Virus record (IMG/VR): IMGVR_UViG_2585427768_000008
Span: 1 to 22,381 of that record
DNA length: 22,381 bases
DNA from: a virus
Taxonomy: Duplodnaviria; Heunggongvirae; Uroviricota; Caudoviricetes
Strand: one strand, 5' to 3'
The notes below the pieces were generated by a model that searched no databases, was not told where the DNA came from, and worked only from the letters and a program-made list of their open reading frames with translations. Position numbers and translations under genes: made by a program. The number at the start of each line of letters is the position of its first letter. Position 1 is the stretch's first letter. Of this stretch, positions 2,631 through 16,715 are shown one piece after another.

Positions 2631-5600
2631 TTAATCCACTCCCACTTTTTTGTTGTACTCGCGGTTAAACCGATCCACGGCAACCTTCATATCCCGCTCT
2701 ACCGATTTCACCATCGCCGCCTGCTGCGCCAGACTGAGAGAACTGTCGGCATAAATGGCATCGCGCTGTTTGCGCAAATCCTTCAGTCTCTTCCGGGTAT
2801 CCTGCATAAGCCCGTTCATCAACAATTTTCCGTTGTTCTCGTCAATGAACGCCGTTCTTTCTGCACCGGTCAGACTCTTCAGCTCTGCGTGATACTGCGC
2901 AACCTCTGTCATCCGGTCGTACATCTTCTGCTGGTCTGCATACGGCATCACCTCACCCGAAATTTTCCCCAGGAAGGGCACCTGCTGTTCCGGTATATCA
3001 ATACCATTCAGCGATTTCACCGCCGCATCCGTGGTTTTGGAAATGAAGCGCCCTGTCCCTCCGGAGATATAGTCAATCCAGAATTTCAGCGATTCCGGTG
3101 TGATATCCACCGCGCCGGGACGATACTGGCTGCCACCTGAGAACGCATTCAGCCAGAATGCAAACGCCTTGTACGCTTCTGGCGTTGAACGTCTTCCCAG
3201 CTGGCTGTCAGGTTTTGGTGTACCAAACGGCATGTTCTCCTGGTAAATCTGCGCCCCCATGAAGTTTTCGTTCATGGCAAGATTCGCAAACGGACGCAGA
3301 ATTGTCGGTGCTGCATTTTTCAGCAATGCCCCCGACAACGTTTCCGACGTCTCGCTGCCGATCGGGCTGAATGCCCCCAGGATACCGCCGACAACATTAC
3401 CGGCAGCACGTGAAGCAGTCAGGTCGCCCGCTGCCACACCTTCAGCTGTATGACCAAGCAGGAAGAACACGTTGTACCCGTAAGGCAGAGGAATACTCCA
3501 GTACTCACCGGCCTTGCCCCCGAACATCGATTTCATGATGACGAGGTTACGCTCTTTCACATGAGACGGTACTTTGTCGTACCAGTTACCCCCGTCATCA
3601 TCCTCCCCCGCCACACTGCGGTTAAGCGAGCCAAGCAGATAACCCGCTCCCACAGCTGCAAGCACGATTTTCTGCGGTACATTGAGATTCTTCCAGCGAA
3701 GGCGCTCCAGTAACGGCCCGTCGCCATTAAGATGTCCGAGCGTTCTCACCAGGTTTGCGGTCCCCTGAATGCTGGCGTTGGCAAACATGTACAGCGAGTT
3801 CATCAGCATCCCCTGCTCACCACGACGGTTAAAGTTCACCGTCATGTTTTTGGCAAGAGACGCCGCCTGCTGGCGTGACAAACCGGCATCACGGGCGTGT
3901 TTATAGGCAGAAAGACGCAGAGCGTTTTCAACCGCGCCGTTGGCATCCTCGACCAGGTTCAGGAACGAATGCCATGCACCGATACTCTGGCCTTTCCATC
4001 CGCCCTTCGCCAGCGACACAAGGCGATCCATTTCCTTCTGCTGGCCCTCAAGGTCACCCATGTTAAACCAGCCGGTTTTACCTCCGTCCTCAACAAACTC
4101 TTTCCACACTTTCTGCCACTGTGCGCCTTTGCCCGTGAGGGTTTTACCCCGCAGACTTGCGTATACGGCTGACATGGCGGAACGGCTGTCTTTCACCACA
4201 GCCAGCGCGGATAAGTTATCCAGCTCTTTCAGTTTACCGTCGCTCCTTCCCTGCTCAGCCTTCAGGTTCATCACCGCAGTCTGCACGTCACGGATGAAGT
4301 TACTGACCAGAAATTCCGGGTTATACGACGTGTTCACCGTTGCCAGGAAGCGGTTAACTTTCCCCAGCGTACGGATTACGGCGTTACTGGTTTCCGGCCC
4401 CATGTTCTTCATCGCACGCATCAGGCGCGGATCATGAAGTTTAATGTAGTAAGTTTTGCCGTCCTTTTTGGTGGTGAAGTAGCGATCCGCCATCATTGCC
4501 ATCGGCACAGGGCGCTCGACAACTTCGCGAATGGTTTCACCAGTTTCCTGGTCCTTGCGCTCTGCAATCACACGCATTGTATCCGGTCTGTCATCAGTGA
4601 ATCCCTGCCAGTAATCCTTGTCGGGATTATCCTGTACCAGTTTCAGGAAGGCGTTACCCACTTCATTTTTGCGATTGCGGATCAGCGATTCACTCAAATC
4701 CTGTATCGCCTGAGTGGAAGGAGACTGTGCGCGGGATGCACGCCCCATGGCCTGCTTACTTTCACGCCCGCCGATGGTGAATCCCTTGCCTGTACGTGGC
4801 TGTGACACCACACCGTCAACATCCTGCCCTTTCAGGGGGACGTAGTAACGGTAGGCTTTCTGCCAGGCATCCACCACGCCGCTCTCTTCCAGTCCTGCCT
4901 CACGGATAATCTCACGGCGACGGGCCAGCATATCGTCAATAATCCCTGCCAGACGGTCATACTGTGCCTGTTTGCCGCTGTTACGCACACGCTGCATGAT
5001 TTCCGCCGCTTCCGCGTTGGTCATCCCCGAACCGCCGTCCGGCATTTTCGGGTTGATTTTCGCAATATGCACGTTACGTTCCGGCGCGTGACGGGCGTAG
5101 AGGTACTCATCCAGATCGGCCTGCGCAATTTTGTAGTCCGCCAGCAATTTGGCCAGCGGCTGAACGTAGCGCTCCTTCATTACGTTCAGGTCGTTTTCCG
5201 CCTTCCCGTGGAAGAGTTCTTCAGCCATATAGGCGTTATTGCTGTCATCTATTTTTCCGCCAGTTTTACGGATATTCTCCTGCACCGCCTTCAGCACCTG
5301 GAATTTATCCTGCATCTGGCGAACAAAACGGGATGCAATTGTCTCTTCCGGCGTCAGACTGCTGGTGCGGGAGTAATACGGCCCCTTGCGAATATCTTCA
5401 GGATAGAGTATTTTATCAACAGAGCCGCGATAAGAATGTTCCCCTTTGGGCAATTGGAGCCCTCTGTGCAGAAGGTTATCGCGGCTTAATTTTTCTCTCC
5501 GGTACAACGTTAAACCGGTCATTTCCATACTCTTCAGTTTTTTCCCGTTTTCCGTACCGTAAACAGATGCCACCTTGTTGATTTCCAGGCGCGACCGGAC

Positions 5601-8600
5601 AGCCTTCATGTGTACCGCTGACACCACCGGATCACCATTTTTATCCACGGCATCAAGCAGCATCACAACCGCGTTTCTTTCTGTCGCGGAACGGTAAATT
5701 GCATCCGGATCGTGCATCAGTTCCGGTAGTCTCTCGATAACATCCATCGGCACCACATGTTTCACACCATTGGTGGCCTTACGCACAGTGTCGCGGGAGA
5801 TAACCAGCGGCAAATCTGGTGCGCCAAGGTGACGCAATACCGGCGGCGTACGCCCGATGTTTACCGTTAAATCCGTTGAGCGCAGAGACTTCATCATTCT
5901 GGCAAGGTCATCACGATAACGCTCGCCCTCACCTTCCGGCACTTTGAACGGATCAGGCTTACCGCTACGGGAGTACTGAGACGATGCGTCCGCGCCATCC
6001 TCACGCGGCGTGTAACCTTCCCGCACACGCTGGCCTAACGTGCGAATAGTTTCGCGAACAAGTCTGATATCGTTCAGTTCCGTCGGCTTCAGTAACCCCG
6101 TACGACGCAGTACCCCTTTGACCAGGGCAACAACACGCTCCCATGCCGCCACGAATTTAATCGGCTGCTTCTCTGCCATATGCGCCAGAAATTCACCCGC
6201 CTGCACTTCCGGTGATTCCTTACCATAAGACGCATCAACCTTACGCCAGGCTTCACGGATGGTGGCGTTATCACTGTCACGGGTTTTCAGCACGGTCTTA
6301 ATAATCGTCTGATATTCCGCTGGCGTGACTACATGCTCCATTGCATGGTGAATAATCTCGTGACGTAACTTCTCGCGAACGGTCCGCCCGTCAGGGATGT
6401 TATCCGCCACCAGGACAATTTCACGTTTATCCGGACGATAGAACGCGTGCACCTTGCCGTAACCGTCGAATGATTCCCCCGCCAGTGCTTCAGCCTCTTT
6501 CTGTGACTTCACCACGCGGACCTTCAGGTCACTGTCCTTAATGCCACTAATCACGCCACGGGCAACAGCTTCAACCTGCGGGACCGGACTGCCTTTGGCT
6601 TCCGCACTACGGTTAACATCCGAAATCAGATTGCCTTCAGGTGTGCGGGTCACGCCCTTACGGGAATAAAACGCAACTCCCTTGTCCGTCTCACGGGTTT
6701 TCAGTGTTCGGAACAAGTGATCGAATGCCTCACGAATACCGCCATCCAGTTCTGCATTCGTCGGATAAGCGTAGGTGTCCGGCTGTCCATGGTCATCCGC
6801 CTTACGGATATTGACCAGATAATCATTCTCCACGCCAGCCATACGCGCTTTATCCTGAACATAACGCTCAAAGGCTCGCGCCGCCATTTCAACATCCGTT
6901 GACCAGTACGGTTTTGAACGAACGCCATCCAGGCGTTCAGAACGACGCAACATGTCACTGCTGTTAATGGCTTTCATCACGCCTTTAAACGCGTCGTAAA
7001 CCTCCTGACGTACCGGATATTCCGCATCAACATACCTGCCGTCTTTAAATACGCGCCCGGCACGCTGTGCTTCCGTCATATAGTCGCCACCTGACGTGAT
7101 CTTCCCGTCAGTGGAAACATCATAACGACCAAAATAATTATCCAGTGAATGGAACCATTCGTGGGCCAGCGCCCCCGGTCCGTTACCTTTTGTCAGGTTG
7201 ATTGCCACCTCACCCGGCTCATAGTGTGCCGCCGCCTTACCCTTACCACGGGCACCAAAAGCAAGCCCAAGACGACCGTTCAGAGAAAGCGCTTTTGTCG
7301 GCACGTTCAGCACGTCAGCCAGGTCATGCAGCGAGTCATAAGCCCGGTTCAAATCAGCCTGACGACGCGGACTTTCCACATAATTACCAAACTGCACACC
7401 ACGAAAACCAAACGCATCACTGAACTGCTCCGGCGAAACATCCCCCTTGCGGCGTTCTGGTCCGGTACGATCGCGGTTGGTGGCGTTACGCTGCTCCTCA
7501 CGCGAGACTTCACGCAGCGCCTTCACCTGATTAACCAGCTCATCACGATGTGTGCGCACATAATCATGTGCATCACGGGCAGACTCAAAACCGCCCTTCA
7601 GTTTCTGCCTGTTTTTGCCATAACCGATAAAAATGTCGCCACTGGCCTTATGCCGGTACACGTCAAAGGTTATTCTGTCATCAGCAGAGGTTGCTGGCGT
7701 TTCCCTTTCTCTGGAGCCTTGTTCATCGAAATATGCTTTCGCCTTTTTCAGTAACTCATCCCGGCTTTCCGAGAAAAAGAGGTCGCGCCCCTTGCTATCA
7801 CGAAGCGAATACATCATTTGCGGCGGATCGTAACGTTTTCCCCCGACAAACGAATAAACACCGGACCTGACACGATAGCCGGATGCTTTATCAATCTGCA
7901 ATGCAGAAAGCGTACGGAGCAGTTTCCAGGTATCCGACATGCTCCGTAACCCCGGCTTACTGTCCATCATATCAGCCAGTTTCGCTGCCGGAATTTTCCC
8001 CTCCAGCATACCGGCAGTAGCTTCGCGACCGCTTTTAACAATGCTGATCCATTTCTGCATGTTACGGCTTGTTCTGGTGGGAATTTCACTGCGATACAAC
8101 GCCATCATTGCCAGCGTGTCACTATCCACACCTTCTTTTTCCAGACGGGCATAATCCGGCTTTGGAAACAGTTTGCTCAGTGGTTGTGTCGCGTACTCCC
8201 CATCCTCCAGCGTTTTACCCATAGCTTCAGCAAGCTGCGCATAACGGTGTTTTGCCGCGCCCTTAATCTCCTCGCCAAAGTCTTCAATTTTCGCACCACG
8301 CGCCTGCTGGTGAGTGCTCGGTTTATCTACCGGCACCGGCACCTCAGTATCCGGAACATCGGTTATGGTCTGGCGATTATCCCCGGTCTGTCTGCGTGCT
8401 TCTGCCTGCTGTGCCAGTTCCGGAAGGGAGTCACGAACCATACGAGGGAGTGATTCAGGCTGTGGCATATCAACCCCACGCTGACTTTCAGGTGCAGGAA
8501 GACCTTCACGCACTGGTGCTGTGGCGTTCTGCTCATCCGGTGACGGCAGACCACGACGAACTGTTTCGCCCTCCAGTATTTCCCCCTGGCGACCAGCGGC

Positions 8601-10484
8601 ATTTTCCGGTGCCTGCGCACGTCCTTTCTGGAAACTCTGGCCCTTCACCTCACCGGTTGTGGTAAAACGACCACCACGTCCGGCCTGATTTTCATCCGGC
8701 GTACGCGCTACTTCTCCTGGTAACGGATATCCCTGTCCGGGATGAATATCGCCGGGAGCGGGAAGGCGTGGACGCTCAGTTAACTCCTGTGCTGTCGGAC
8801 CGGCATCACCTTCAGCCATCTGGGAACGCACCAGTTCTTCCGCCGTCGGCGCGTTGCCACGAGCAAGACGGGCCTGCACTTCTGTATCATCCCCCGTAAA
8901 ACCACGGAATCGCGGGTCACGCATGAACGCGGGCTGTTCCATCGGATCAGCATCAGTAATACGCTCTCCGTCAGCCAGAGTGTTAATGGTCTCCGTTGCC
9001 ACATCTTCAGAGAACGCAGGATTATCCATTTCAACGGCATACTGATTCTCGCCTTTCTTCACTACGGACGGTTTCAGGCCGGTGGCGCTGGCATTGCGGA
9101 AAACGTCGCTCCCCAGAGCACTTTTTTCATCCGTGAAATAACGGTTGTCCGGACGCACCTTTTCAATGCGTTCTGCTGGTCTGGACGCACCACTCTCGTT
9201 AATTTCAATACGAACTTCATCCGGATCGCGGAACCGCACCGTCGGGTAAATACTCCCGTCGCCATCATCCGCATTTTCCGGCTGTGGCTGTGCCTCCGGT
9301 CTGGCCTCCCGCTGAGGGCGAAGCACATCACGTATTGCCTGTAACTGCTGCTCTTCAGTATCAGTACGCCCTTCCTTCTGGCTGAGTTTTCGGTATTCCT
9401 CAAGCAGTTCAGGGCGCGGCTTCGCCTTCAGCTCATCCATCACCGCCTGTCGCTTCGCCTGTTCATCCAGTTCATTCAACAGCTGGCTGGCGGCTTCCCG
9501 GCGATGAACGGCAGACGTGTCTCCCTCATGTGCCATATCCGCATCAGCATACTGTTCCAGAAGCTGCTCGCGATTCATCCCCTGCATAGATTCACGATGC
9601 TGTGCCACCGGATCAACCGGTTCGGGTTGCGGAGCCGATTCGTCCTGAGGAACGCTTTCAGCCTCACGCATGGCTGCTTCATCTGCCGCCTGACGTTTTC
9701 CACGATATCCGGCAGCCGCACCGAATGGTGCCCCCATTGCAGCACCAAGGGCTGCACCTTCGATCGTTGCGTCAGCCACGCCCTCCCACGGTGACACATC
9801 CATTCCGGCGGTCTCACGCAATGCCGTGTTTTCCTGATAGCGTGAATAGCCACCCTGCGCCGCATTAATCGTCCCCTGTTCCGTGGCATTTCTGACAATG
9901 CCGCTTTTAACGGTCTTCGCCGTGCCCCGCATCGCCAGATTAAGCAACTGAGCATCGCCCAGTTTTGCCGCCATGGCATTCACAGCCAGCAATTCAGGAT
10001 CGGTTGCCAGCTGCGCACGCACCTCATCGGCAACACGCTCTTTTGCCAGGTCCATTTTCTGGCGGTCAGTAAGCTGCGCGTGCTGCGGATCTGCATCAAT
10101 TGACAAAAAGGTCTGCTGAAATTTCGGTGACTTCGCCAGCTCAGAATAATCCGCGTTAAGAACAGCATCTGCCGCTGCCATTGCACTCCGCCCTTGCGCA
10201 CTGACAGTGGAATGGGTGATCAGGCCTGCCTGGAAAAAATCCGGCATTTTTTTATCGACAGCTTCGGCTGCCAGTGCTGTGGCTCTTTCCGGCTGCATCC
10301 CTGCCGCGATGTATTTTTTCTCCAGCCCGGCGGTCAGCACTTTTCGCAGAGTGACATCACCCAGCTTTTTAGTCACACCGCCTGCAACCATATCCGGTAC
10401 AAGCGCACCAATCAGGTTAACTCCACAAGCCTTCGCAACTTCAGGGATGCCGACACCTTTAATCGGCTCATCAAGATTTTGCAT
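2631..10484 (-). CDS. giant multidomain protein (about 2617 aa) with zincin-like HExxH motifs; function unknown, possibly polyvalent-protein-like
   Basis: Uninterrupted 7.9-kb ORF on the minus strand. Preferred start is ATG at 10484 (AAGGA 7 nt upstream); the track start at 10517 has no RBS. HEWFH encoded at 7149-7163 and RHEIIHHAMEH at about 6334-6363. No Walker A or methyltransferase motifs seen. GC content visibly higher than the neighbouring AT-rich operon. Confidence 0.9.
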   Translation of the reverse strand: MQNLDEPIKGVGIPEVAKACGVNLIGALVPDMVAGGVTKKLGDVTLRKVLTAGLEKKYIAAGMQPERATALAAEAVDKKMPDFFQAGLITHSTVSAQGRSAMAAADAVLNADYSELAKSPKFQQTFLSIDADPQHAQLTDRQKMDLAKERVADEVRAQLATDPELLAVNAMAAKLGDAQLLNLAMRGTAKTVKSGIVRNATEQGTINAAQGGYSRYQENTALRETAGMDVSPWEGVADATIEGAALGAAMGAPFGAAAGYRGKRQAADEAAMREAESVPQDESAPQPEPVDPVAQHRESMQGMNREQLLEQYADADMAHEGDTSAVHRREAASQLLNELDEQAKRQAVMDELKAKPRPELLEEYRKLSQKEGRTDTEEQQLQAIRDVLRPQREARPEAQPQPENADDGDGSIYPTVRFRDPDEVRIEINESGASRPAERIEKVRPDNRYFTDEKSALGSDVFRNASATGLKPSVVKKGENQYAVEMDNPAFSEDVATETINTLADGERITDADPMEQPAFMRDPRFRGFTGDDTEVQARLARGNAPTAEELVRSQMAEGDAGPTAQELTERPRLPAPGDIHPGQGYPLPGEVARTPDENQAGRGGRFTTTGEVKGQSFQKGRAQAPENAAGRQGEILEGETVRRGLPSPDEQNATAPVREGLPAPESQRGVDMPQPESLPRMVRDSLPELAQQAEARRQTGDNRQTITDVPDTEVPVPVDKPSTHQQARGAKIEDFGEEIKGAAKHRYAQLAEAMGKTLEDGEYATQPLSKLFPKPDYARLEKEGVDSDTLAMMALYRSEIPTRTSRNMQKWISIVKSGREATAGMLEGKIPAAKLADMMDSKPGLRSMSDTWKLLRTLSALQIDKASGYRVRSGVYSFVGGKRYDPPQMMYSLRDSKGRDLFFSESRDELLKKAKAYFDEQGSRERETPATSADDRITFDVYRHKASGDIFIGYGKNRQKLKGGFESARDAHDYVRTHRDELVNQVKALREVSREEQRNATNRDRTGPERRKGDVSPEQFSDAFGFRGVQFGNYVESPRRQADLNRAYDSLHDLADVLNVPTKALSLNGRLGLAFGARGKGKAAAHYEPGEVAINLTKGNGPGALAHEWFHSLDNYFGRYDVSTDGKITSGGDYMTEAQRAGRVFKDGRYVDAEYPVRQEVYDAFKGVMKAINSSDMLRRSERLDGVRSKPYWSTDVEMAARAFERYVQDKARMAGVENDYLVNIRKADDHGQPDTYAYPTNAELDGGIREAFDHLFRTLKTRETDKGVAFYSRKGVTRTPEGNLISDVNRSAEAKGSPVPQVEAVARGVISGIKDSDLKVRVVKSQKEAEALAGESFDGYGKVHAFYRPDKREIVLVADNIPDGRTVREKLRHEIIHHAMEHVVTPAEYQTIIKTVLKTRDSDNATIREAWRKVDASYGKESPEVQAGEFLAHMAEKQPIKFVAAWERVVALVKGVLRRTGLLKPTELNDIRLVRETIRTLGQRVREGYTPREDGADASSQYSRSGKPDPFKVPEGEGERYRDDLARMMKSLRSTDLTVNIGRTPPVLRHLGAPDLPLVISRDTVRKATNGVKHVVPMDVIERLPELMHDPDAIYRSATERNAVVMLLDAVDKNGDPVVSAVHMKAVRSRLEINKVASVYGTENGKKLKSMEMTGLTLYRREKLSRDNLLHRGLQLPKGEHSYRGSVDKILYPEDIRKGPYYSRTSSLTPEETIASRFVRQMQDKFQVLKAVQENIRKTGGKIDDSNNAYMAEELFHGKAENDLNVMKERYVQPLAKLLADYKIAQADLDEYLYARHAPERNVHIAKINPKMPDGGSGMTNAEAAEIMQRVRNSGKQAQYDRLAGIIDDMLARRREIIREAGLEESGVVDAWQKAYRYYVPLKGQDVDGVVSQPRTGKGFTIGGRESKQAMGRASRAQSPSTQAIQDLSESLIRNRKNEVGNAFLKLVQDNPDKDYWQGFTDDRPDTMRVIAERKDQETGETIREVVERPVPMAMMADRYFTTKKDGKTYYIKLHDPRLMRAMKNMGPETSNAVIRTLGKVNRFLATVNTSYNPEFLVSNFIRDVQTAVMNLKAEQGRSDGKLKELDNLSALAVVKDSRSAMSAVYASLRGKTLTGKGAQWQKVWKEFVEDGGKTGWFNMGDLEGQQKEMDRLVSLAKGGWKGQSIGAWHSFLNLVEDANGAVENALRLSAYKHARDAGLSRQQAASLAKNMTVNFNRRGEQGMLMNSLYMFANASIQGTANLVRTLGHLNGDGPLLERLRWKNLNVPQKIVLAAVGAGYLLGSLNRSVAGEDDDGGNWYDKVPSHVKERNLVIMKSMFGGKAGEYWSIPLPYGYNVFFLLGHTAEGVAAGDLTASRAAGNVVGGILGAFSPIGSETSETLSGALLKNAAPTILRPFANLAMNENFMGAQIYQENMPFGTPKPDSQLGRRSTPEAYKAFAFWLNAFSGGSQYRPGAVDITPESLKFWIDYISGGTGRFISKTTDAAVKSLNGIDIPEQQVPFLGKISGEVMPYADQQKMYDRMTEVAQYHAELKSLTGAERTAFIDENNGKLLMNGLMQDTRKRLKDLRKQRDAIYADSSLSLAQQAAMVKSVERDMKVAVDRFNREYNKKVGVD

Positions 10485-10562
10485 AGGGATATCCTTTTTC
10501 GTACTTTCAGTACGCATTATGATTGAACTGAAAGTTTTTGCAAGTGCTTTAGTATCGTACTC
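10485..10562. promoter_or_regulatory. divergent promoter/operator switch region between giant gene and cI-like repressor
   Basis: Minus-strand promoter TTGCAA (10538-10543), 16-nt spacer, CATAAT (complement of 10516-10521). Perfect 15-bp palindrome CGTACTTTCAGTACG (10500-10514) just downstream of the -10; inverted partial copy ACTGAAAGT (10527-10535). A third CGTAC-N5-GTTCA element (10556-10570) overlaps the cI start. cI has no Shine-Dalgarno; TAGTAT (10550-10555) lies 7 nt before its ATG, suggesting a leaderless transcript as for lambda pRM. Confidence 0.5.
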
Positions 10563-11739: not shown

Positions 11740-12201
11740 ATGAGAATACTAGGTGTTAGAGCGGCGCCCAAAGTTACATCTTTTGTTGTATATTGCACTA
11801 ATGAGTCTGCACTCAAATGTGTTGATGTTATTAAAATACCTTCGACCTTAGACACACCAGAAAAATTAAAGTATGTGAGAAATAACATCCTCGACATTCT
11901 TAATTTATATAATGTTGAATTAGCTGCCATACGCGTTACTGAATCAAACTCTGATAATCTTAGCATTGACCGCCTTTATATAGAAGCTGTTATTCAAGAA
12001 GCATTTTCAAGCAGTGATGTAAGAAAATATTACACTATTAGAAAATCTGGCATGAAATCATCATTGAACCTAACAGAGATCGAGTATAAAGAAATATTGA
12101 AGTCACACCGCAATATAAATGGAATCGATAATTCTGGTTTTACAACTGAAACAAATGAAGCTGTTTTGGCTGCTCTATCTGCGGAGGTAAGGGGATGCTA
12201 A
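11740..12201 (+). CDS. hypothetical protein, upstream partner of Ser/Thr kinase
   Basis: 153-aa ORF in a markedly AT-rich segment; AGGA upstream of the ATG; 3' end overlaps the kinase start by 7 nt. No recognisable motifs. Confidence 0.6.
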   Translation: MRILGVRAAPKVTSFVVYCTNESALKCVDVIKIPSTLDTPEKLKYVRNNILDILNLYNVELAAIRVTESNSDNLSIDRLYIEAVIQEAFSSSDVRKYYTIRKSGMKSSLNLTEIEYKEILKSHRNINGIDNSGFTTETNEAVLAALSAEVRGC

Positions 12202-13241
12202 CTCCATACAAAAGAGCTGATGTAGAATTCGAATGGATTAGTGATCTAGAAGAACAGGGTTGTTTTTCAAAAGTATATCTGGCTCATGACAGACACCTAG
12301 CTCATGACTTGGTGATTAAAGAAATAGAAAAAAAAGAAAACACTAACCACGACGACTACTTTAATGAAGCAAGGCTTCTCTATAAACATGCACATCCAAA
12401 TATTGTGCAAGTTCAGTATGCTGCTCAATGTGAGAGCAATATCTATATAGCCATGCCATTTTATCATAATGGTTCGCTAAACCAATTAATGAAAAAAAAT
12501 AATCTTACAAGCAGGGAGATAATACGGTATTCCATTCAATTTTTAAGTGGACTTTATCATATACACTCAAAAGGTCTTATGCATTTTGATATAAAACCTA
12601 ATAACATTATGATATCAAACAGAAATGAGGCCATGCTATCTGACTTTGGATTATCTCAGTTAGTCAATGAGGAATCGAGAGCTGCGCCTGAGTTTGGATA
12701 TCATTTTCATGTGCCACCGGAATATTTTTCTTTATCAACAAATGATTATAATTTCACATATGACATATATCAGGCAGGATTAACCATATATAGAATGTGT
12801 GTTGGACATGATAATTTTGAAAGAGAAAGATCTGCATTTAGCACGATTGAACAACTCAGAGAGTCGATAATTAATGGCTGCTATCCATTAAAAGAGTATC
12901 CTCCCCATATACATAAAAAATTAATAACAATAGTGAACAAATGCATTCATGTAGATCCAAATGAAAGATATCAATCCGTACTAGATGTACTAAACGATCT
13001 CTCAGCTATAAGTGATGGCGTTCTTGACTGGCGTCTACAGATGACGAAACCAACTAACGGCACATGCGAATGGCAAAAAAAGTCTGGGGACGCTATACTG
13101 TCTATAGTTTTTGACGCAGAAAATTCGTCTACTACTGGTTTTCGTTTATACGATGATGGGCGGAAAAGGCGTGCTACGAACTTAACAATATCCTCAGGAT
13201 GTACCCCTACAAAACTGTATAGGTTATTAAAGGATAACTGA
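12195..13241 (+). CDS. eukaryotic-like (Hanks-type) Ser/Thr protein kinase
   Basis: 348-aa ORF with GGAGG 7 nt upstream. Kinase subdomain motifs in order: glycine-rich-like loop EQGCFSKVY, VIK lysine, catalytic loop HFDIKPNN (about 12583-12606), DFG (12642-12650), PPE (APE-like), DIYQAG. AT-rich. Confidence 0.85.
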   Translation: MLTPYKRADVEFEWISDLEEQGCFSKVYLAHDRHLAHDLVIKEIEKKENTNHDDYFNEARLLYKHAHPNIVQVQYAAQCESNIYIAMPFYHNGSLNQLMKKNNLTSREIIRYSIQFLSGLYHIHSKGLMHFDIKPNNIMISNRNEAMLSDFGLSQLVNEESRAAPEFGYHFHVPPEYFSLSTNDYNFTYDIYQAGLTIYRMCVGHDNFERERSAFSTIEQLRESIINGCYPLKEYPPHIHKKLITIVNKCIHVDPNERYQSVLDVLNDLSAISDGVLDWRLQMTKPTNGTCEWQKKSGDAILSIVFDAENSSTTGFRLYDDGRKRRATNLTISSGCTPTKLYRLLKDN

Positions 13242-13243
13242 TC

Positions 13244-13408
13244 ATGAAAAAGCGCGAGGAAGTAAGCAAGCTGCCTCGCAGACGTGATGCAGCATTAGCG
13301 GTTCCCTACAAAAAAGATGAGTTCATAAGCCCTTCTGATGACAAAAAATTTTCAAAGGCGAAAAGTTTTACATCTACATCTCTAAAAGATAAATACTTTA
13401 AAATCTAG
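13244..13408 (+). CDS. small basic protein (54 aa), translationally coupled to kinase
   Basis: ATG at 13244, 2 nt after the kinase stop, with AAGGA upstream; stop TAG 13406-13408 directly precedes the terminator. Not in the supplied ORF track (below its length cutoff); read by hand. Confidence 0.35.
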   Translation: MKKREEVSKLPRRRDAALAVPYKKDEFISPSDDKKFSKAKSFTSTSLKDKYFKI

Positions 13409-13434
13409 CCCGGCCTCAGCGCCGGGTTTTCTTT
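13409..13434 (+). terminator. rho-independent terminator ending the cI/kinase operon (tIMM-like)
   Basis: CCCGGC (13409-13414), 6-nt loop, GCCGGG (13421-13426), followed by TTTTCTTT. Confidence 0.7.
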
Positions 13435-13605
13435 GCCTCACGATCCCCCACCTAAAAAAACATAACTCATTGTATTTATTGATGTAACTCGCTAAACCAT
13501 GCAGTTCTGATCCCTGCCGCATAACCTTCATCAGCCACATTTTCAAAAATAAATTTCCTTATATATCAGAATCATACTTCGTAGAGTTAATAAATCACCA
13601 AAATT

Positions 13606-13650
13606 CGTACCAATAGTTCTTGATAATGTCGAACTATTGGTTCACTATTA
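13606..13650 (+). promoter_or_regulatory. candidate pL-like promoter with inverted-repeat operator
   Basis: 11-bp inverted repeat ACCAATAGTTC (13609-13619) / GAACTATTGGT (13631-13641) with 11-bp spacer containing TTGATA (13620-13625, -35-like); weak -10-like CACTAT at 13643-13648. CGTAC-N5-GTTCT at 13606-13620 resembles elements in the cI switch region. Confidence 0.4.
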
Positions 13651-13717
13651 TCGTCATCAGCAGGACGCATTACTCACCAGGGCGGTGAATATACAACGAT
13701 TCGAATATGAATCTACG

Positions 13718-13732
13718 GCGCTGACAAAGCGC
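13718..13732 (+). promoter_or_regulatory. nutL-like boxB RNA hairpin (P22 type)
   Basis: GCGCT GACAA AGCGC: 5-bp stem with GACAA pentaloop, the boxB form I recall for phage P22. Lies between the pL-like promoter and the N-like gene. No convincing boxA found upstream. Confidence 0.6.
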
Positions 13733-13742
13733 AATAACCAAA

Positions 13743-13885
13743 GTGAACTTTGGGGTGTGGTGAAGGGTTCATGGACGGGAATATGTCGCACGTAAAGCGG
13801 CGAGGCCTGTGGGACTATTGCCGAATTGAAGTAGGCCGAAACAGGTCGAAATGGGTCTCCCACCTACCACACCACCAAAGTTCAT
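13743..13885 (+). other. long-range helix in the N-like gene leader (possible RNase III-type processing or translational control structure)
   Basis: TGAACTTTGG (13744-13753) and GTGTGGT (13755-13761) pair with ACCACAC (13867-13873) and CCAAAGTTCA (13876-13885), about 17 bp with one bulge, enclosing about 105 nt. The helix ends 1 nt before the AGGAGG Shine-Dalgarno (13887-13892). Confidence 0.4.
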
Positions 13886-13897
13886 CAGGAGGTCTAT

Positions 13898-14998
13898 ATG
13901 ACACGCAGAACTCAGTTCAAAGGCAATTCACGTTCTCGTCGTCGTGAGCGTTTAAAGGCAAAGGCATTAGCTAACTGCGTACTGGCCCGCGAAGAAGCAA
14001 TAAGTTCAGAAGTATTACACCGCCCTACTCTAAGCAGAGCGCAGATTCAGGCTAAAGGTACTCACGAAACGCCTGAGCGCATAGAAGACGCTAAGCCAAT
14101 TAAGTTCATGGCACAGGACGTGATCTGGCAACAGAAAGAATACAGACGCAATCTGGAGCGAGCAGCCATTGTGTACGCGAATGAGTTTGGACATAAGCAA
14201 CCAGAAACTGGTGTATGTCTTCCAAACGTAGCCATTTACGCGGCAGGCTACCGGAAATCAAAACAACTGACGGCGAGGGGATTGATGACCACGCCTTCAG
14301 TTTTGCCGCAAAAGTTATGGCGTCCGCTTGCAGAGATTAAAAACTTCGTTGAAAAAATGCCTGATGGAGTTCGCCTTACGGAAGTTACTAAAAAAGTTAA
14401 GACATTTGCCGAACTGTCAGGAAAGGAGAGAAACCAGCTCATAGATTTTATCGATAAACGGGAAAGCATCATTGTATTTAAGGTCAGAAAAGAAGGTTCT
14501 GGTAACGGAGTAACCTTTTTCCGCCACAAAAAATATGGATATCCCAAACGGGAAGGAAACGTCACAATCACTAAGGACCTTCAATCAAAATTATGTACCA
14601 GATGCGGGCAGACAAAATCAGTCAATGATTTTTATTCAGATGCCAGCAAGCGTGACGGGAGAGCCATTTATTGCAAGAAGTGCGAATCTGCAATGAAACG
14701 CTCACGCAGAAAATGCAACAAATTAATTCTGCAACAACAGGAACCTGAAATGAATAACCTCAAAGCAGTTTCACCTTCACCAGAAATACTCAGAAAACAG
14801 GCTGAAGAATTGCTGAAAGCCGCCGAAATTGCGGAGAAAAAACGCCAGGAAGATGATGCATTCAACAAAAAACTTGCGCCCTTAAAACTTGAAATCCTTC
14901 AGGCCGCCGGAAAAATGCAGCTTAAACTGGACGAATTCATCGACTGTATGGATGAAATGAATAAAGCAGTTCAGAAGCTTAAAGAGCTGACCGCCTGA
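13898..14998 (+). CDS. N-like transcription antiterminator with arginine-rich N-terminus, extended by a CxxC...CxxC zinc-ribbon and coiled-coil C-terminal region
   Basis: 366-aa ORF, AGGAGG 5 nt upstream. N-terminus KGNSRSRRRERLKAKALAN resembles the arginine-rich motif of the P22 N protein (recalled as GNAKTRRHERRRKLAIER) and pairs with the P22-type boxB upstream. CTRCGQ...CKKCES motif near residue 250. Much longer than typical N proteins. Confidence 0.6.
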   Translation: MTRRTQFKGNSRSRRRERLKAKALANCVLAREEAISSEVLHRPTLSRAQIQAKGTHETPERIEDAKPIKFMAQDVIWQQKEYRRNLERAAIVYANEFGHKQPETGVCLPNVAIYAAGYRKSKQLTARGLMTTPSVLPQKLWRPLAEIKNFVEKMPDGVRLTEVTKKVKTFAELSGKERNQLIDFIDKRESIIVFKVRKEGSGNGVTFFRHKKYGYPKREGNVTITKDLQSKLCTRCGQTKSVNDFYSDASKRDGRAIYCKKCESAMKRSRRKCNKLILQQQEPEMNNLKAVSPSPEILRKQAEELLKAAEIAEKKRQEDDAFNKKLAPLKLEILQAAGKMQLKLDEFIDCMDEMNKAVQKLKELTA

Positions 14999-15029
14999 TA
15001 TTAATAAATTGCAACTACCGGAGTTAACT

Positions 15030-15389
15030 ATGAACGAAACAGAACTGAAGCACATTATCGCCCTGCTTCTGGAAGATGCCAGACAGGTTTATCGACTTAG
15101 CCCAAATTCCGCAACGCTGACACGCATCCAGATGGCAGAAAAAGCACTGAAACAGGATAATGAAAACAGCGCATCCGAAGTTGATGCTAATGGTGAAAAT
15201 GAAGTAATAGAAATAAACAGCAATATCAGCGATAGTTGCGTCGCTTACAGCCACCAAATAATTCGTGTAAGTGCAAGAATAATGGAAGTGATGGCAAGTG
15301 AGCTTGAAAAGAACAACATCAAGCCCACTGATTGTTGTTTAAGAACCGTAATGAACGTTATTTATTACTCGATGTTCCGAAGTCGCTAA
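15030..15389 (+). CDS. hypothetical protein
   Basis: ATG at 15030 with GGAG 6 nt upstream (the track start at 15009 is TTG without an RBS). 119 aa, no recognisable motifs. Confidence 0.5.
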   Translation: MNETELKHIIALLLEDARQVYRLSPNSATLTRIQMAEKALKQDNENSASEVDANGENEVIEINSNISDSCVAYSHQIIRVSARIMEVMASELEKNNIKPTDCCLRTVMNVIYYSMFRSR

Positions 15390-15567
15390 CAGCGTCGAGT
15401 TTTTCATCAAAAAATGATTCAAATGCATCGTAAAATACGGCAATAGCACCGCCCTTATCTACCGCGGCAGGAACTGCCTTTTGAGGTATATCTTTCTCCC
15501 TGAATTGTGTGTTGTAGGTATCGACAGCCAGCCGCATCAGAAACATCACTTTTTCTTCTTGTGTCAT
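15358..15567 (-). CDS. hypothetical small protein (69 aa), antisense to the surrounding operon
   Basis: Minus-strand ATG at 15567 preceded by a strong AAGGAGAG Shine-Dalgarno; 3' end overlaps the convergent + gene by 32 nt. Confidence 0.45.
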   Translation of the reverse strand: MTQEEKVMFLMRLAVDTYNTQFREKDIPQKAVPAAVDKGGAIAVFYDAFESFFDEKLDAVSDFGTSSNK

Positions 15568-15806
15568 AAATTCACTCTCCTTACGGGGTTTGTAGTTGAG
15601 GAGTTCTCCACGGGTGAGGTGGAGATCGTGCGCCGGACACGGGTAAGTTCCGGCACTCTCAGTTTACTGAACAGACATTACCCTGAAAGCCAGGGTACAA
15701 CACGAAAGTGCACGGCGAAGACTCTTTCCCATTGAAGGCTTGTCGTTAGATTTCTTCGACCGTGCGCTTCCGGTTGTGAATAACAACATTGCTGTGTGTA
15801 GCCCTT

Positions 15807-15848
15807 GGCGGACATCGGTTTGCCGATTGCTGATGTCCGCCCTTTTTA
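15807..15848 (+). terminator. rho-independent terminator (tL-like)
   Basis: GGCGGACATC (15807-15816), about 15-nt loop, GATGTCCGCC (15832-15841), followed by CTTTTT. Confidence 0.65.
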
Positions 15849-16023
15849 AAGTGAATTTTGTGATGCGGTGAATGCGGCTATGCGCACGCGGAACAGTTAA
15901 ACCGACAGGATGTCACGGAAAGTCATCGTCCCCTGACCCGGCGTTAGTTGTTAACTGGTTAACGTCACCTGGAGGTACCAGGCACCGCATCAACAAAGTT
16001 CATTTGTGAAAATGGAGATAATT

Positions 16024-16245
16024 ATGATTGTTCATCACTTCGGAACTGATGAAATACCACGTCAGTGCGTGACGCCTGGCGATTATGTTCTTCATGAAGG
16101 TCGGACATATATCGCTTCAGCAAACAATATTGAAAAGAGAAAACTCTATATTCGTAACTTCACAACAAAAACATGCATTACCGACTGCATGATTAAAGTT
16201 TTCATCGGGCGCGATGGCTTACCCGTAAAAGCAGCGTCGTTGTGA
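16024..16245 (+). CDS. hypothetical small protein
   Basis: ATG at 16024 with GGAG 6 nt upstream (the track start at 16006 is GTG without an RBS). 73 aa. Confidence 0.5.
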
Positions 16246-16328
16246 CGAGTAATAAAATACCCCTTCCATATCTGTAACAGACAAGCCGAAATAAAACCGC
16301 ATTAATTATCAATCACGGAAAAATCAAA

Positions 16329-16715
16329 ATGAAAGAACTTGCGCAAAATGAAATATTTTCCGAAACCAGTCCTGATGCAATAAATGAACTCAAAGAAATT
16401 GCAGAACGCATCAGTAAAATATGCAAAGAATACAAAATCGACTTTGTATTTTCTTTTTCAGTGCTTACAGAAGTTGGAAATAACGAATATAAGGACAGTC
16501 GTTTTGTTTTATGTGGGTTAAATGGCAAAACACCAAGCCCATATATTCATGCTGCACGTGAAGTTGTCAGAAGCAACATTGGAGTACAACAAATCCATAC
16601 ACTTGCACAGGCTCTTGAGTTTGCAAGAGAAAATTCTGAGTGCGACTGCCCTGAATGCCAGCACGAAAAGGGAAAAACAACTCACAAAACAGCAAACCAG
16701 GCAACCTTCCACTGA
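16329..16715 (+). CDS. hypothetical protein with C-terminal CDCPEC cysteine cluster
   Basis: 128-aa ORF, weak RBS, AT-rich; C-terminal SECDCPECQHEKGK. Confidence 0.5.
   Translation: MKELAQNEIFSETSPDAINELKEIAERISKICKEYKIDFVFSFSVLTEVGNNEYKDSRFVLCGLNGKTPSPYIHAAREVVRSNIGVQQIHTLAQALEFARENSECDCPECQHEKGKTTHKTANQATFH

Follow-up and report, generated by a model that had tools for sequence, protein, structure and literature searches.

Does the short hairpin at position 13718-13732 of this prophage sequence, together with the reading frame that follows it, constitute an N-type antitermination module, and to which of the lambdoid systems does it belong? A first-pass annotation of the window (the whole stretch of 22,381 nucleotides analysed here) had described a hairpin with a 5-bp stem and a GACAA loop, named as the boxB form of P22 nutL, and a downstream ORF carrying a P22-like arginine-rich motif (ARM), and had regarded the pair as strong support for an N-type antitermination system. 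Our analysis indicates that 13718-13732 is very probably the nutL BOXB of a lambdoid prophage of the H-19B/933W type and that the ORF starting at 13898 encodes its N antiterminator, as shown by sequence identity, RNA structure, covariation, and co-inheritance of site and protein. The features of the region between the end of the cI-stk operon and the end of the native N gene are as follows.

13407-13428, plus strand: tM, intrinsic terminator at the end of the cI-stk maintenance operon, upstream of pL (terminator scan; 'tM' in the 933W annotation)
13606-13620 and 13630-13644, no strand assigned: two OL operator-like sites flanking the pL -35, putative operators (3-4 mismatches relative to 933W oR3)
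13620-13648, plus strand: predicted pL promoter, with a -35 TTGATA at 13620-13625, a 17-nt spacer and a -10 CACTAT at 13643-13648 (analogy with lambda pL and shared ATCAGCAGGACGC)
13656, plus strand: predicted start of the pL transcript, the A of ATCAGCAGGACGC
13666-13732, plus strand: nutL as annotated in 933W, with a BOXA-like start CGCATTACTCA, a long spacer and BOXB (mapped from the 933W record)
13674-13688, plus strand: spacer hairpin 1, UCACC-AGGGC-GGUGA (fold; stem constant and loop variable among relatives)
13698-13713, plus strand: spacer hairpin 2, the nut-spacer dyad GAUUC-GAAUAU-GAAUC (fold; stem constant and loop variable among relatives)
13718-13732, plus strand: BOXB of nutL (fold; identity to P22 and H-19B; stem covariation over 9 sites)
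13887-13892, plus strand: Shine-Dalgarno sequence of N, AGGAGG (read from the sequence)
13898-14278, plus strand: N, codons 1-127 (PF25694, PHROG 271 and identity to 933W and H-19B N; G27C at 13976)

The hairpin lies exactly where it had been claimed. Reading of the sequence and a motif search both place GCGCTGACAAAGCGC at 13718-13732 of the plus strand, and the 5-bp stem GCGCU/AGCGC closed by the GACAA pentaloop is present in the minimum free energy and centroid structures of pL-leader folds of 91 nt and 261 nt. The attribution to P22 was accurate too, since the same 15-mer, corresponding to GCGCUGACAAAGCGC with a GACAA pentaloop, is the P22 nutL BOXB inside the annotated nutL feature of NC_002371.2, and the BOXB of H-19B nutL is also identical to it. 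An exact occurrence of this 15-mer is expected by chance about 4e-5 times in ~22 kb read on both strands. When up to 3 mismatches are tolerated, 0.88 matches are expected by chance, hence such a search is uninformative on chance; it returned no second BOXB copy anywhere in the window. An Rfam scan of 13300-16500 at E-values up to 1 gave no nut or BOXB family and a single chance snoRNA match. BOXB starts and ends at about +63 and +77 of the predicted transcript, roughly 60 nt from its 5' end, and its last base precedes the N ATG by 165 nt, a short stem with a GNRA-like loop being thus found early in the transcript between pL and N, as in lambdoid N/nut systems generally.

The stem was further examined across 9 nut sites of N relatives, which are diverse sequences drawn from a tblastn search of phage records. 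Within the pentaloop group, the nutR sites of 933W, H-19B and the E. coli ES5 prophage read CGCTATTTTCACAAT-GGACATTCGTCC-TACG-TCGCTGACAAAGCGA, with a dyad GGAC-ATTC-GTCC, and their BOXB (UCGCU-GACAA-AGCGA) keeps the loop while the closing-end pair changes from G-C to U-A in a compensatory manner; P22 nutR has CCGCC-GACAA-CGCGG and Oslo nutL GCUCC-GUCAA-CGAGC. Other relatives carry a tetraloop, namely CGGCU-GAAA-AGCCG in epsilon34 and Si3, AGGCU-GAAA-AGCCU in BIS08P22, UGGCU-GAAA-AGCCA in YYZ-2008 and PhiR57_1, and UGGCU-GCAA-AGCCA in POCJ13. These tetraloop hairpins, about 100-135 nt before the N start, were found by reading the leaders, a search restricted to pentaloop hairpins being blind to them. 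In the 9-site alignment, which was registered by hand with hairpins chosen by the analyst (a procedure that favours structure) and in which an N placeholder fills the gap between tetraloops and pentaloops, 95.6% of the cells pair and both sides change in 3 of the 5 base pairs; no shuffle reached the covariation score of the stem, and slid registers all collapsed. On these comparative grounds, we consider that the BOXB hairpin is a constrained RNA structure.

The tetraloop relatives also shed light on the loop itself. BOXB pentaloops adopt a GNRA-like fold in which one base is extruded. Judged from these relatives, GACAA corresponds to GAAA with one extra base, which fits such a fold. Furthermore, the pentaloop is associated with an ARM of the form GN[SA][RK][ST]RR (H-19B, 933W, and P22) and the tetraloop with GSAAGRRRERR or GTAASRRRARR, and this distribution, in a small sample, suggests that ARM subtype and BOXB loop type covary.

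Upstream of the hairpin, the nutL feature of 933W was mapped to the window with a correction for a 1-nt indel near 13443-13460, and its end then falls on the final base of BOXB. The site is identical to 933W at 67 of 67 positions and differs from that of H-19B (AF034975) by a single base. The first-pass annotation had remarked that no convincing boxA precedes the hairpin and had called this unusual. Indeed, the BOXA consensus CGCTCTTTAAC has no match with up to 3 mismatches between pL and BOXB (13650-13717), and a CGCTCTTTA-like canonical BOXA a few nucleotides before BOXB is lacking; at the place where lambda and YYZ-2008 carry BOXA, the window has ATATACAACG. The BOXA-like CGCATTACTCA aligns with the part of the lambda leader that lies upstream of the lambda BOXA, the lambda sequence aligned being ATCAGCAGGACGCACTGACCACCATGAAGGTGA-CGCTCTTAA-AAATTAA-GCCCTGAAGAAGGGC. 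In place of BOXA stands a spacer of ~40 nt with two small hairpins, which gives the long, dyad-symmetric interval between BOXA-like sequence and BOXB that is typical of the H-19B/933W type. Hairpin 1 is homologous to lambda CACC-ATGAA-GGTG, located upstream of lambda BOXA, and hairpin 2 shows the loops GAATAT, AAATAT, AAGCAA, AAACAT, and AGTGAT among relatives. Neely and Friedman reportedly described in 2000 that H-19B nut sites need neither BOXA nor NusB nor S10 and that their spacers contain dyad symmetries. The absence of BOXA is therefore expected rather than contrary, being a described trait of H-19B-type nut sites; the remark was right about the sequence, but what it took for an oddity is a known property of these sites.

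The protein encoded downstream of the hairpin begins with MTRRTQFKGNSRSRRRERLKAKAL, and the core of its ARM, R12-R18 (RSRRRER), is encoded at 13931-13951. Residues 2-127 match the Pfam family PF25694 (N_peptide) with an E-value of 1.6e-12 and 48.2 bits for a cut-off of 27.9, and PHROG 271, 'anti-termination protein N-like', is matched with an E-value of 1.5e-38; along with the ARM alignment, these profiles identify the small N homologue with an N-terminal ARM that is characteristic of lambdoid N/nut systems. It is identical to 933W N, which corresponds to window positions 13898-14281, at 126 of 127 residues (99%), and its identity reaches 96.8% with H-19B N, 39% with P22 gp24, and 31% with lambda N. 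The comparison with P22 and lambda that had been proposed was thus carried out for the proteins as for the nut sites, and the ARM aligns with that of N in both phages. With P22 gp24, it aligns as F-x-G-N-[SA]-[RK]-[ST]-R-R-x-E-R (QFKGNSRSRRRERLKAKAL in the window and TFAGNAKTRRHERRRKLAI in P22), as the first reading had anticipated, and the C-termini (LPNVAIYAAGYRKSKQLTAR and LPGVALYAAGHRKSKQITAR, respectively) share the pattern LPxVAxYAAGxRKSKQxTAR, the last 30 residues being the only part aligned by BLASTP (E-value of 2e-10). A phmmer search of PDB sequences returned only non-significant matches to RECQ5, the N peptides of the PDB being too short or too divergent for phmmer. Taken together, a hairpin that is the P22 nutL BOXB, an ARM that aligns with gp24 and matches to N-family profiles bear out the proposal of an N-type antitermination system. 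Its P22-like character has to be qualified: it holds for BOXB and for the ARM, yet H-19B and 933W stand closest, the similarity to gp24 being distant by comparison, and the BOXA GCTCTTTAA that stands 10 nt before BOXB in P22 is missing here.

The assignment to the H-19B/933W type rests on near-identity of both nutL and N and extends to their surroundings. Positions 13400-14284 show 98.5% identity to phage 933W, over its tM-nutL-N region, and to many Stx phages; in the 933W record (AF125520), the gene order is cI, L0084, L0083, stk, L0081, tM, 'nutL; putative N-utilization leftward', and N. The interval from cI to pL at 11740-13408 of the plus strand, where lambda has rexAB, contains a RuvC-like ORF, stk, and a 54-aa ORF, as in 933W; these are preceded by a DUF3024 gene, and stk encodes a eukaryotic-type Ser/Thr kinase (Pkinase, E-value of 2.2e-46).

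The function of H-19B N has been established by others. The antitermination activity of this protein, documented in vivo as well as in vitro with NusA and NusG, extends to H-19B nutR/tR1 and to intrinsic terminators (PMC3526286; PMC4499122); these assays used the nutR site of H-19B, not nutL. The mutants R3H, S11F, R15C, R15P, and R18P abolish antitermination, as does alanine in place of the arginines of 12-RSRRRER-18, and H-19B N and NusA protect the spacer and BOXB of nutR, which has two hairpins (PMC3526286; PMC4499122). RNA polymerase is bound by the C-terminal domain, which the protein requires to antiterminate at a distance from the nut site. Its final 7 residues can be done without, and Rho is still blocked close to the nut site when deletions fall within the final 27 (PMC3526286). 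All residues named in this mutant work are present in the N protein of the window.

By analogy with H-19B, and with activity in this genome being a matter of inference, the module would operate as follows. Once CI repression at OL is lifted, pL (~13620-13648) would start transcription near 13656. The operator-like sites share the motif CGTAC/CGAAC-N5-GTTC(A/T); pL was not detected by a consensus promoter scan, and ATCAGCAGGACGC also follows the pL of lambda and P22, its 5' nucleotide being marked there in the P22 record. About 60 nt further on, the nascent RNA would fold into the GCGCU-GACAA-AGCGC hairpin, whose GNRA-like loop would be bound by the N-terminal ARM of N (core 12-RSRRRER-18). Tethered in this way to the RNA, N with NusA (and NusG) would modify the elongating RNA polymerase, which would then ignore Rho-dependent and intrinsic terminators; in H-19B-type nut sites, this would proceed without a canonical BOXA, the long dyad-symmetric spacer taking its place. 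The strongest candidate target lies ahead of kil-recE-gam-bet-exo in the pL operon:

15807-15847, plus strand: strong hairpin resembling an intrinsic terminator, with CUUUUU directly after a 13-bp stem (folding energy -25.7 kcal/mol, z-score -4.84)

Read-through of this putative terminator would allow kil, recE, gam, bet, and exo to be expressed. Two sub-threshold Rfam matches were also observed between the N region and kil (15793-16038): one to DicF at 15793-15842 of the plus strand (29.5 bits, gathering score 48), overlapped by the hairpin above, and one to STnc100 at 15844-16038 of the plus strand (29.3 bits, gathering score 47).

The distribution of the module among related phages was surveyed in 80 related IMG/VR loci, whose N proteins are 98-99% identical; they are the basis of our counts of conservation and stop codons and are too alike for covariation. 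The exact BOXB is found in every locus with enough upstream sequence, 71 times directly and 8 times beyond a longer leader insert. Sixty-two of the 80 loci are devoid of a 933W-type pL sequence upstream, as judged by a regular-expression test, yet keep nutL and N. PhiR5_2 illustrates this situation: it has a lambda-like pL and immunity region, different from the window upstream, and its identity to the window begins just upstream of the transcript start CATCAGCAGGACGC, nutL and N being kept. From this survey, nutL and N are evidently co-inherited behind different immunity regions.

If the module itself is well conserved, the copy found here has undergone several changes, and the following features are needed to describe them.

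14279-14281, plus strand: lost stop codon of N (GGA here; TGA in 933W, PhiR5_2, and ES5; TGA or TAA in 80/80 related loci)
14285-14998, plus strand: downstream gene, PHROG 2539, cysteine-cluster region (PHROG E-value of 6.6e-130; separate CDS in PhiR5_2 and ES5)
10418-10424, minus strand: deletion junction with a 7-bp microhomology, GGAGTTA (comparison with the E. coli ES5 prophage)

The ORF that starts at 13898 is 366 aa long (13898-14998) because the change of TGA to GGA fuses the 127-aa N in frame, via Gly-Leu, to the PHROG 2539 gene, adding 239 residues to the C-terminus of N. In all 80 related loci, N is 127 aa long, and the native stop of the H-19B/933W type is thus missing from the window. 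The exact fusion protein is recorded in one contig only, JORV01000119.1 (GCA_000713355.1), from which the window evidently derives; the variant sequence is absent from GTDB representative genomes and from IMG/VR, and the 61-mer around it has no zero-mismatch match in 5,426 complete E. coli genomes. The G at 14279 is either a mutation private to this genome or, the assembly being a draft, an error of sequencing. The description of the downstream ORF as N accordingly stands for codons 1-127, but not for the full 366 aa, which are non-native, and this ORF should not be mistaken for a novel long N protein. Two further changes were noted: N carries G27C (codon at 13976) where 79 of the 80 relatives have G, and the pL -10 reads CACTAT, with a T->C change at 13645, where 933W and 17 related loci have CATTAT, and no such change appears in ES5 or 933W, nor in any of the 18 related loci whose hexamer is readable.

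A second nut site, nutR, which in lambdoid systems lies downstream of cro, was not found in the window, even though it is present in 933W, H-19B, and ES5. It is absent because a deletion joins codon 22 of cro, in frame, to a giant ORF (2631-10517, minus strand) which encodes an LPD5/LPD38 giant late protein without its first 188 codons. Compared with the prophage of E. coli ES5, which is 933W-like and intact, the window lacks 36.7 kb; nutR, cII, and the replication, nin, Q, lysis, capsid, and tail genes are lost, and with them the whole right arm and the morphogenesis functions, whereas OR1-OR3 are intact. The junction at 10418-10424 occurs in no other genome searched, and it may possibly be an artefact of the draft assembly. 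As far as the assembled sequence goes, the prophage in this genome is a damaged deletion remnant.

The lack of a canonical BOXA, the absence of nutR, the lost N stop, G27C, and the weakened pL -10 are the points that speak against the reading set out above, the first of them being expected for this nut type. A rival proposal is that the module is nutL-N by descent and no longer works, the hairpin being kept in a decaying remnant for lack of time to decay and the fusion protein being unable to thread its C-terminal domain into RNA polymerase. The private nature of the stop loss, unseen in all the collections searched, the replacement of a glycine kept by nearly all relatives, the altered -10, and the extent of the 36.7-kb deletion all favour this proposal, as does the finding that H-19B N needs its C-terminal domain to antiterminate at a distance from its nut site (PMC3526286). 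On the other hand, nutL is intact and identical to that of 933W, the ARM is intact, and the stop loss might vanish with a corrected base at 14279; moreover, the tail of H-19B N is partly dispensable, in the light of the C-terminal deletions described above (PMC3526286), which implies that some activity could survive the addition of residues at the C-terminus. We thus hold loss of function to be a real prospect, somewhat short of an even chance. That the stop loss is genuine and that the 366-aa N::PHROG-2539 fusion is both made and active appears unlikely. Two readings that would deny the module altogether fare much worse. The hairpin could have nothing to do with N, being an inverted repeat that arose by chance, a terminator, or an attenuator, given its shortness and a 3-mismatch search that says nothing about chance; but the exact 15-mer is very rarely expected, no U-tract follows it and it is missing from the calls of the terminator scan, and its identity to the P22 and H-19B BOXBs, together with a stem that covaries around a conserved loop, effectively refutes this explanation, which we hold to be extremely improbable. 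The protein could be a Nun-like exclusion factor, binding BOXB to terminate the transcription of a competing phage. Nun proteins, such as HK022 Nun, do have an N-terminal ARM and bind BOXB. However, the protein is one residue away from 933W N and nearly identical to H-19B N, a demonstrated antiterminator, it shares its C-terminus with P22 gp24, and its gene occupies the place of N, preceded by a nutL of its own; on these grounds, this exclusion role was rejected as having next to no likelihood.

A different proposal adds to antitermination rather than replacing it, and it concerns the leader between BOXB and N, in which two distant segments pair:

13743-13885, plus strand: long-range stem of the N leader, 5' arm 13743-13762 pairing with 3' arm 13865-13885 (fold z-score -3.56; covariation)

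According to this proposal, BOXB and the stem would also form an operator for translational autoregulation of N, nutL-bound N repressing its own ribosome-binding site and cleavage of the stem by RNase III relieving the repression, as in lambda. Court and colleagues reportedly described in the lambda N leader an RNase III-sensitive stem and a nutL-dependent autoregulation of N translation. In its favour, the 3' arm stops 2 nt short of the N Shine-Dalgarno sequence, the fold is more stable than expected as its z-score indicates, and compensatory changes occur at 9 of 20 pairs among 8 relatives, in a test for which the arms were joined artificially by a GAAA linker, a circumstance that tells against the proposal. 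The arms are retained while the interior is exchanged between relatives, with leaders of 143/144, 180, and ~275 nt, and the stem is homologous to that of the lambda N leader, on the 5' arm of which it was aligned. Autoregulation is therefore a tentative suggestion that we consider possible without favouring it. Just after BOXB, CCAAAG-TGAA-CTTTGG (13733-13760) could also form a local hairpin; its CTTTGG would compete with the pairing of the same segment to CCAAAG at 13875-13880, and alternative leader structures are thus possible.

With N/nut descent of the H-19B/933W type as the preferred reading, the nutL-N module is evidently one already known, being annotated in 933W and experimentally studied in H-19B, and not a new system. 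Since the hairpin is the described H-19B/933W nutL BOXB, the finding is correct but ordinary, and its value lies in a correct annotation and little in discovery: a reading of the raw sequence picked out a true regulatory RNA-protein pair, the 'missing BOXA' is explained as a known property of the H-19B-type phage group, and the prophage of this genome is flagged as the remnant of a deletion, its N gene being read through. Should the improbable active fusion exist, it would be a natural case of an N protein that accommodates 239 extra residues at its C-terminus or, alternatively, a zinc-cluster protein tethered through BOXB to the elongation complex, in the setting of a domesticated remnant where a CI-controlled pL-nutL-N would drive only kil and the recE/gam/bet/exo recombination genes.

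Comparison with known systems places the module as follows. The tetraloop-BOXB relatives (epsilon34, Si3, BIS08P22, YYZ-2008, PhiR57_1, and POCJ13) belong to the same N family, with 35-71% identity, and share with the window the leader stem and a nut layout of the form ...ACAACG-dyad-CTACG-BOXB. They differ by their GNRA loops (GAAA or GCAA), by other BOXB stems and by their ARMs (GSAAGRRRERR or GTAASRRRARR), and a canonical BOXA, GCTCTTTAAACAA, absent from the window, is retained in three of them, YYZ-2008, PhiR57_1, and POCJ13. With lambda, the common points are an architecture in which pL, the transcript start, a CACC..GGTG hairpin, the nut site, a structured leader, and N follow one another, an arginine-rich N-terminus of N, and a BOXB with a 5-bp stem and a GNRA-like pentaloop; the lambda BOXB, GCCCU-GAAGA-AGGGC, is different, and GGTGA is immediately followed by BOXA (CGCTCTTAA) in lambda but by ATATACAACG in the window.

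The likeness to P22 comprises the BOXB 15-mer, the ARM FxGN[SA][RK][ST]RRxER, the C-terminal tail, the ATCAGCAGGACGC start, and the place of the hairpin upstream of an N homologue. Nevertheless, P22 nutL is organised as GCTCTTTAA-CTTCGATGAT-GCGCTGACAAAGCGC, with a canonical BOXA 10 nt before BOXB, whereas the window combines the absence of BOXA with a ~40-nt spacer and two hairpins. Relative to 933W and H-19B, the window stands apart by the lost N stop, G27C, the T->C change in the pL -10, and the deletion of nutR and of the right arm, and the gene that follows N is of the PhiR5_2/ES5 type, not of the 933W type. It is with these two phages, though, that it shares the entire neighbourhood, composed of cI, the DUF3024 gene, the RuvC-like gene, stk, tM, pL, nutL, and N, and the same ARM, 12-RSRRRER-18.
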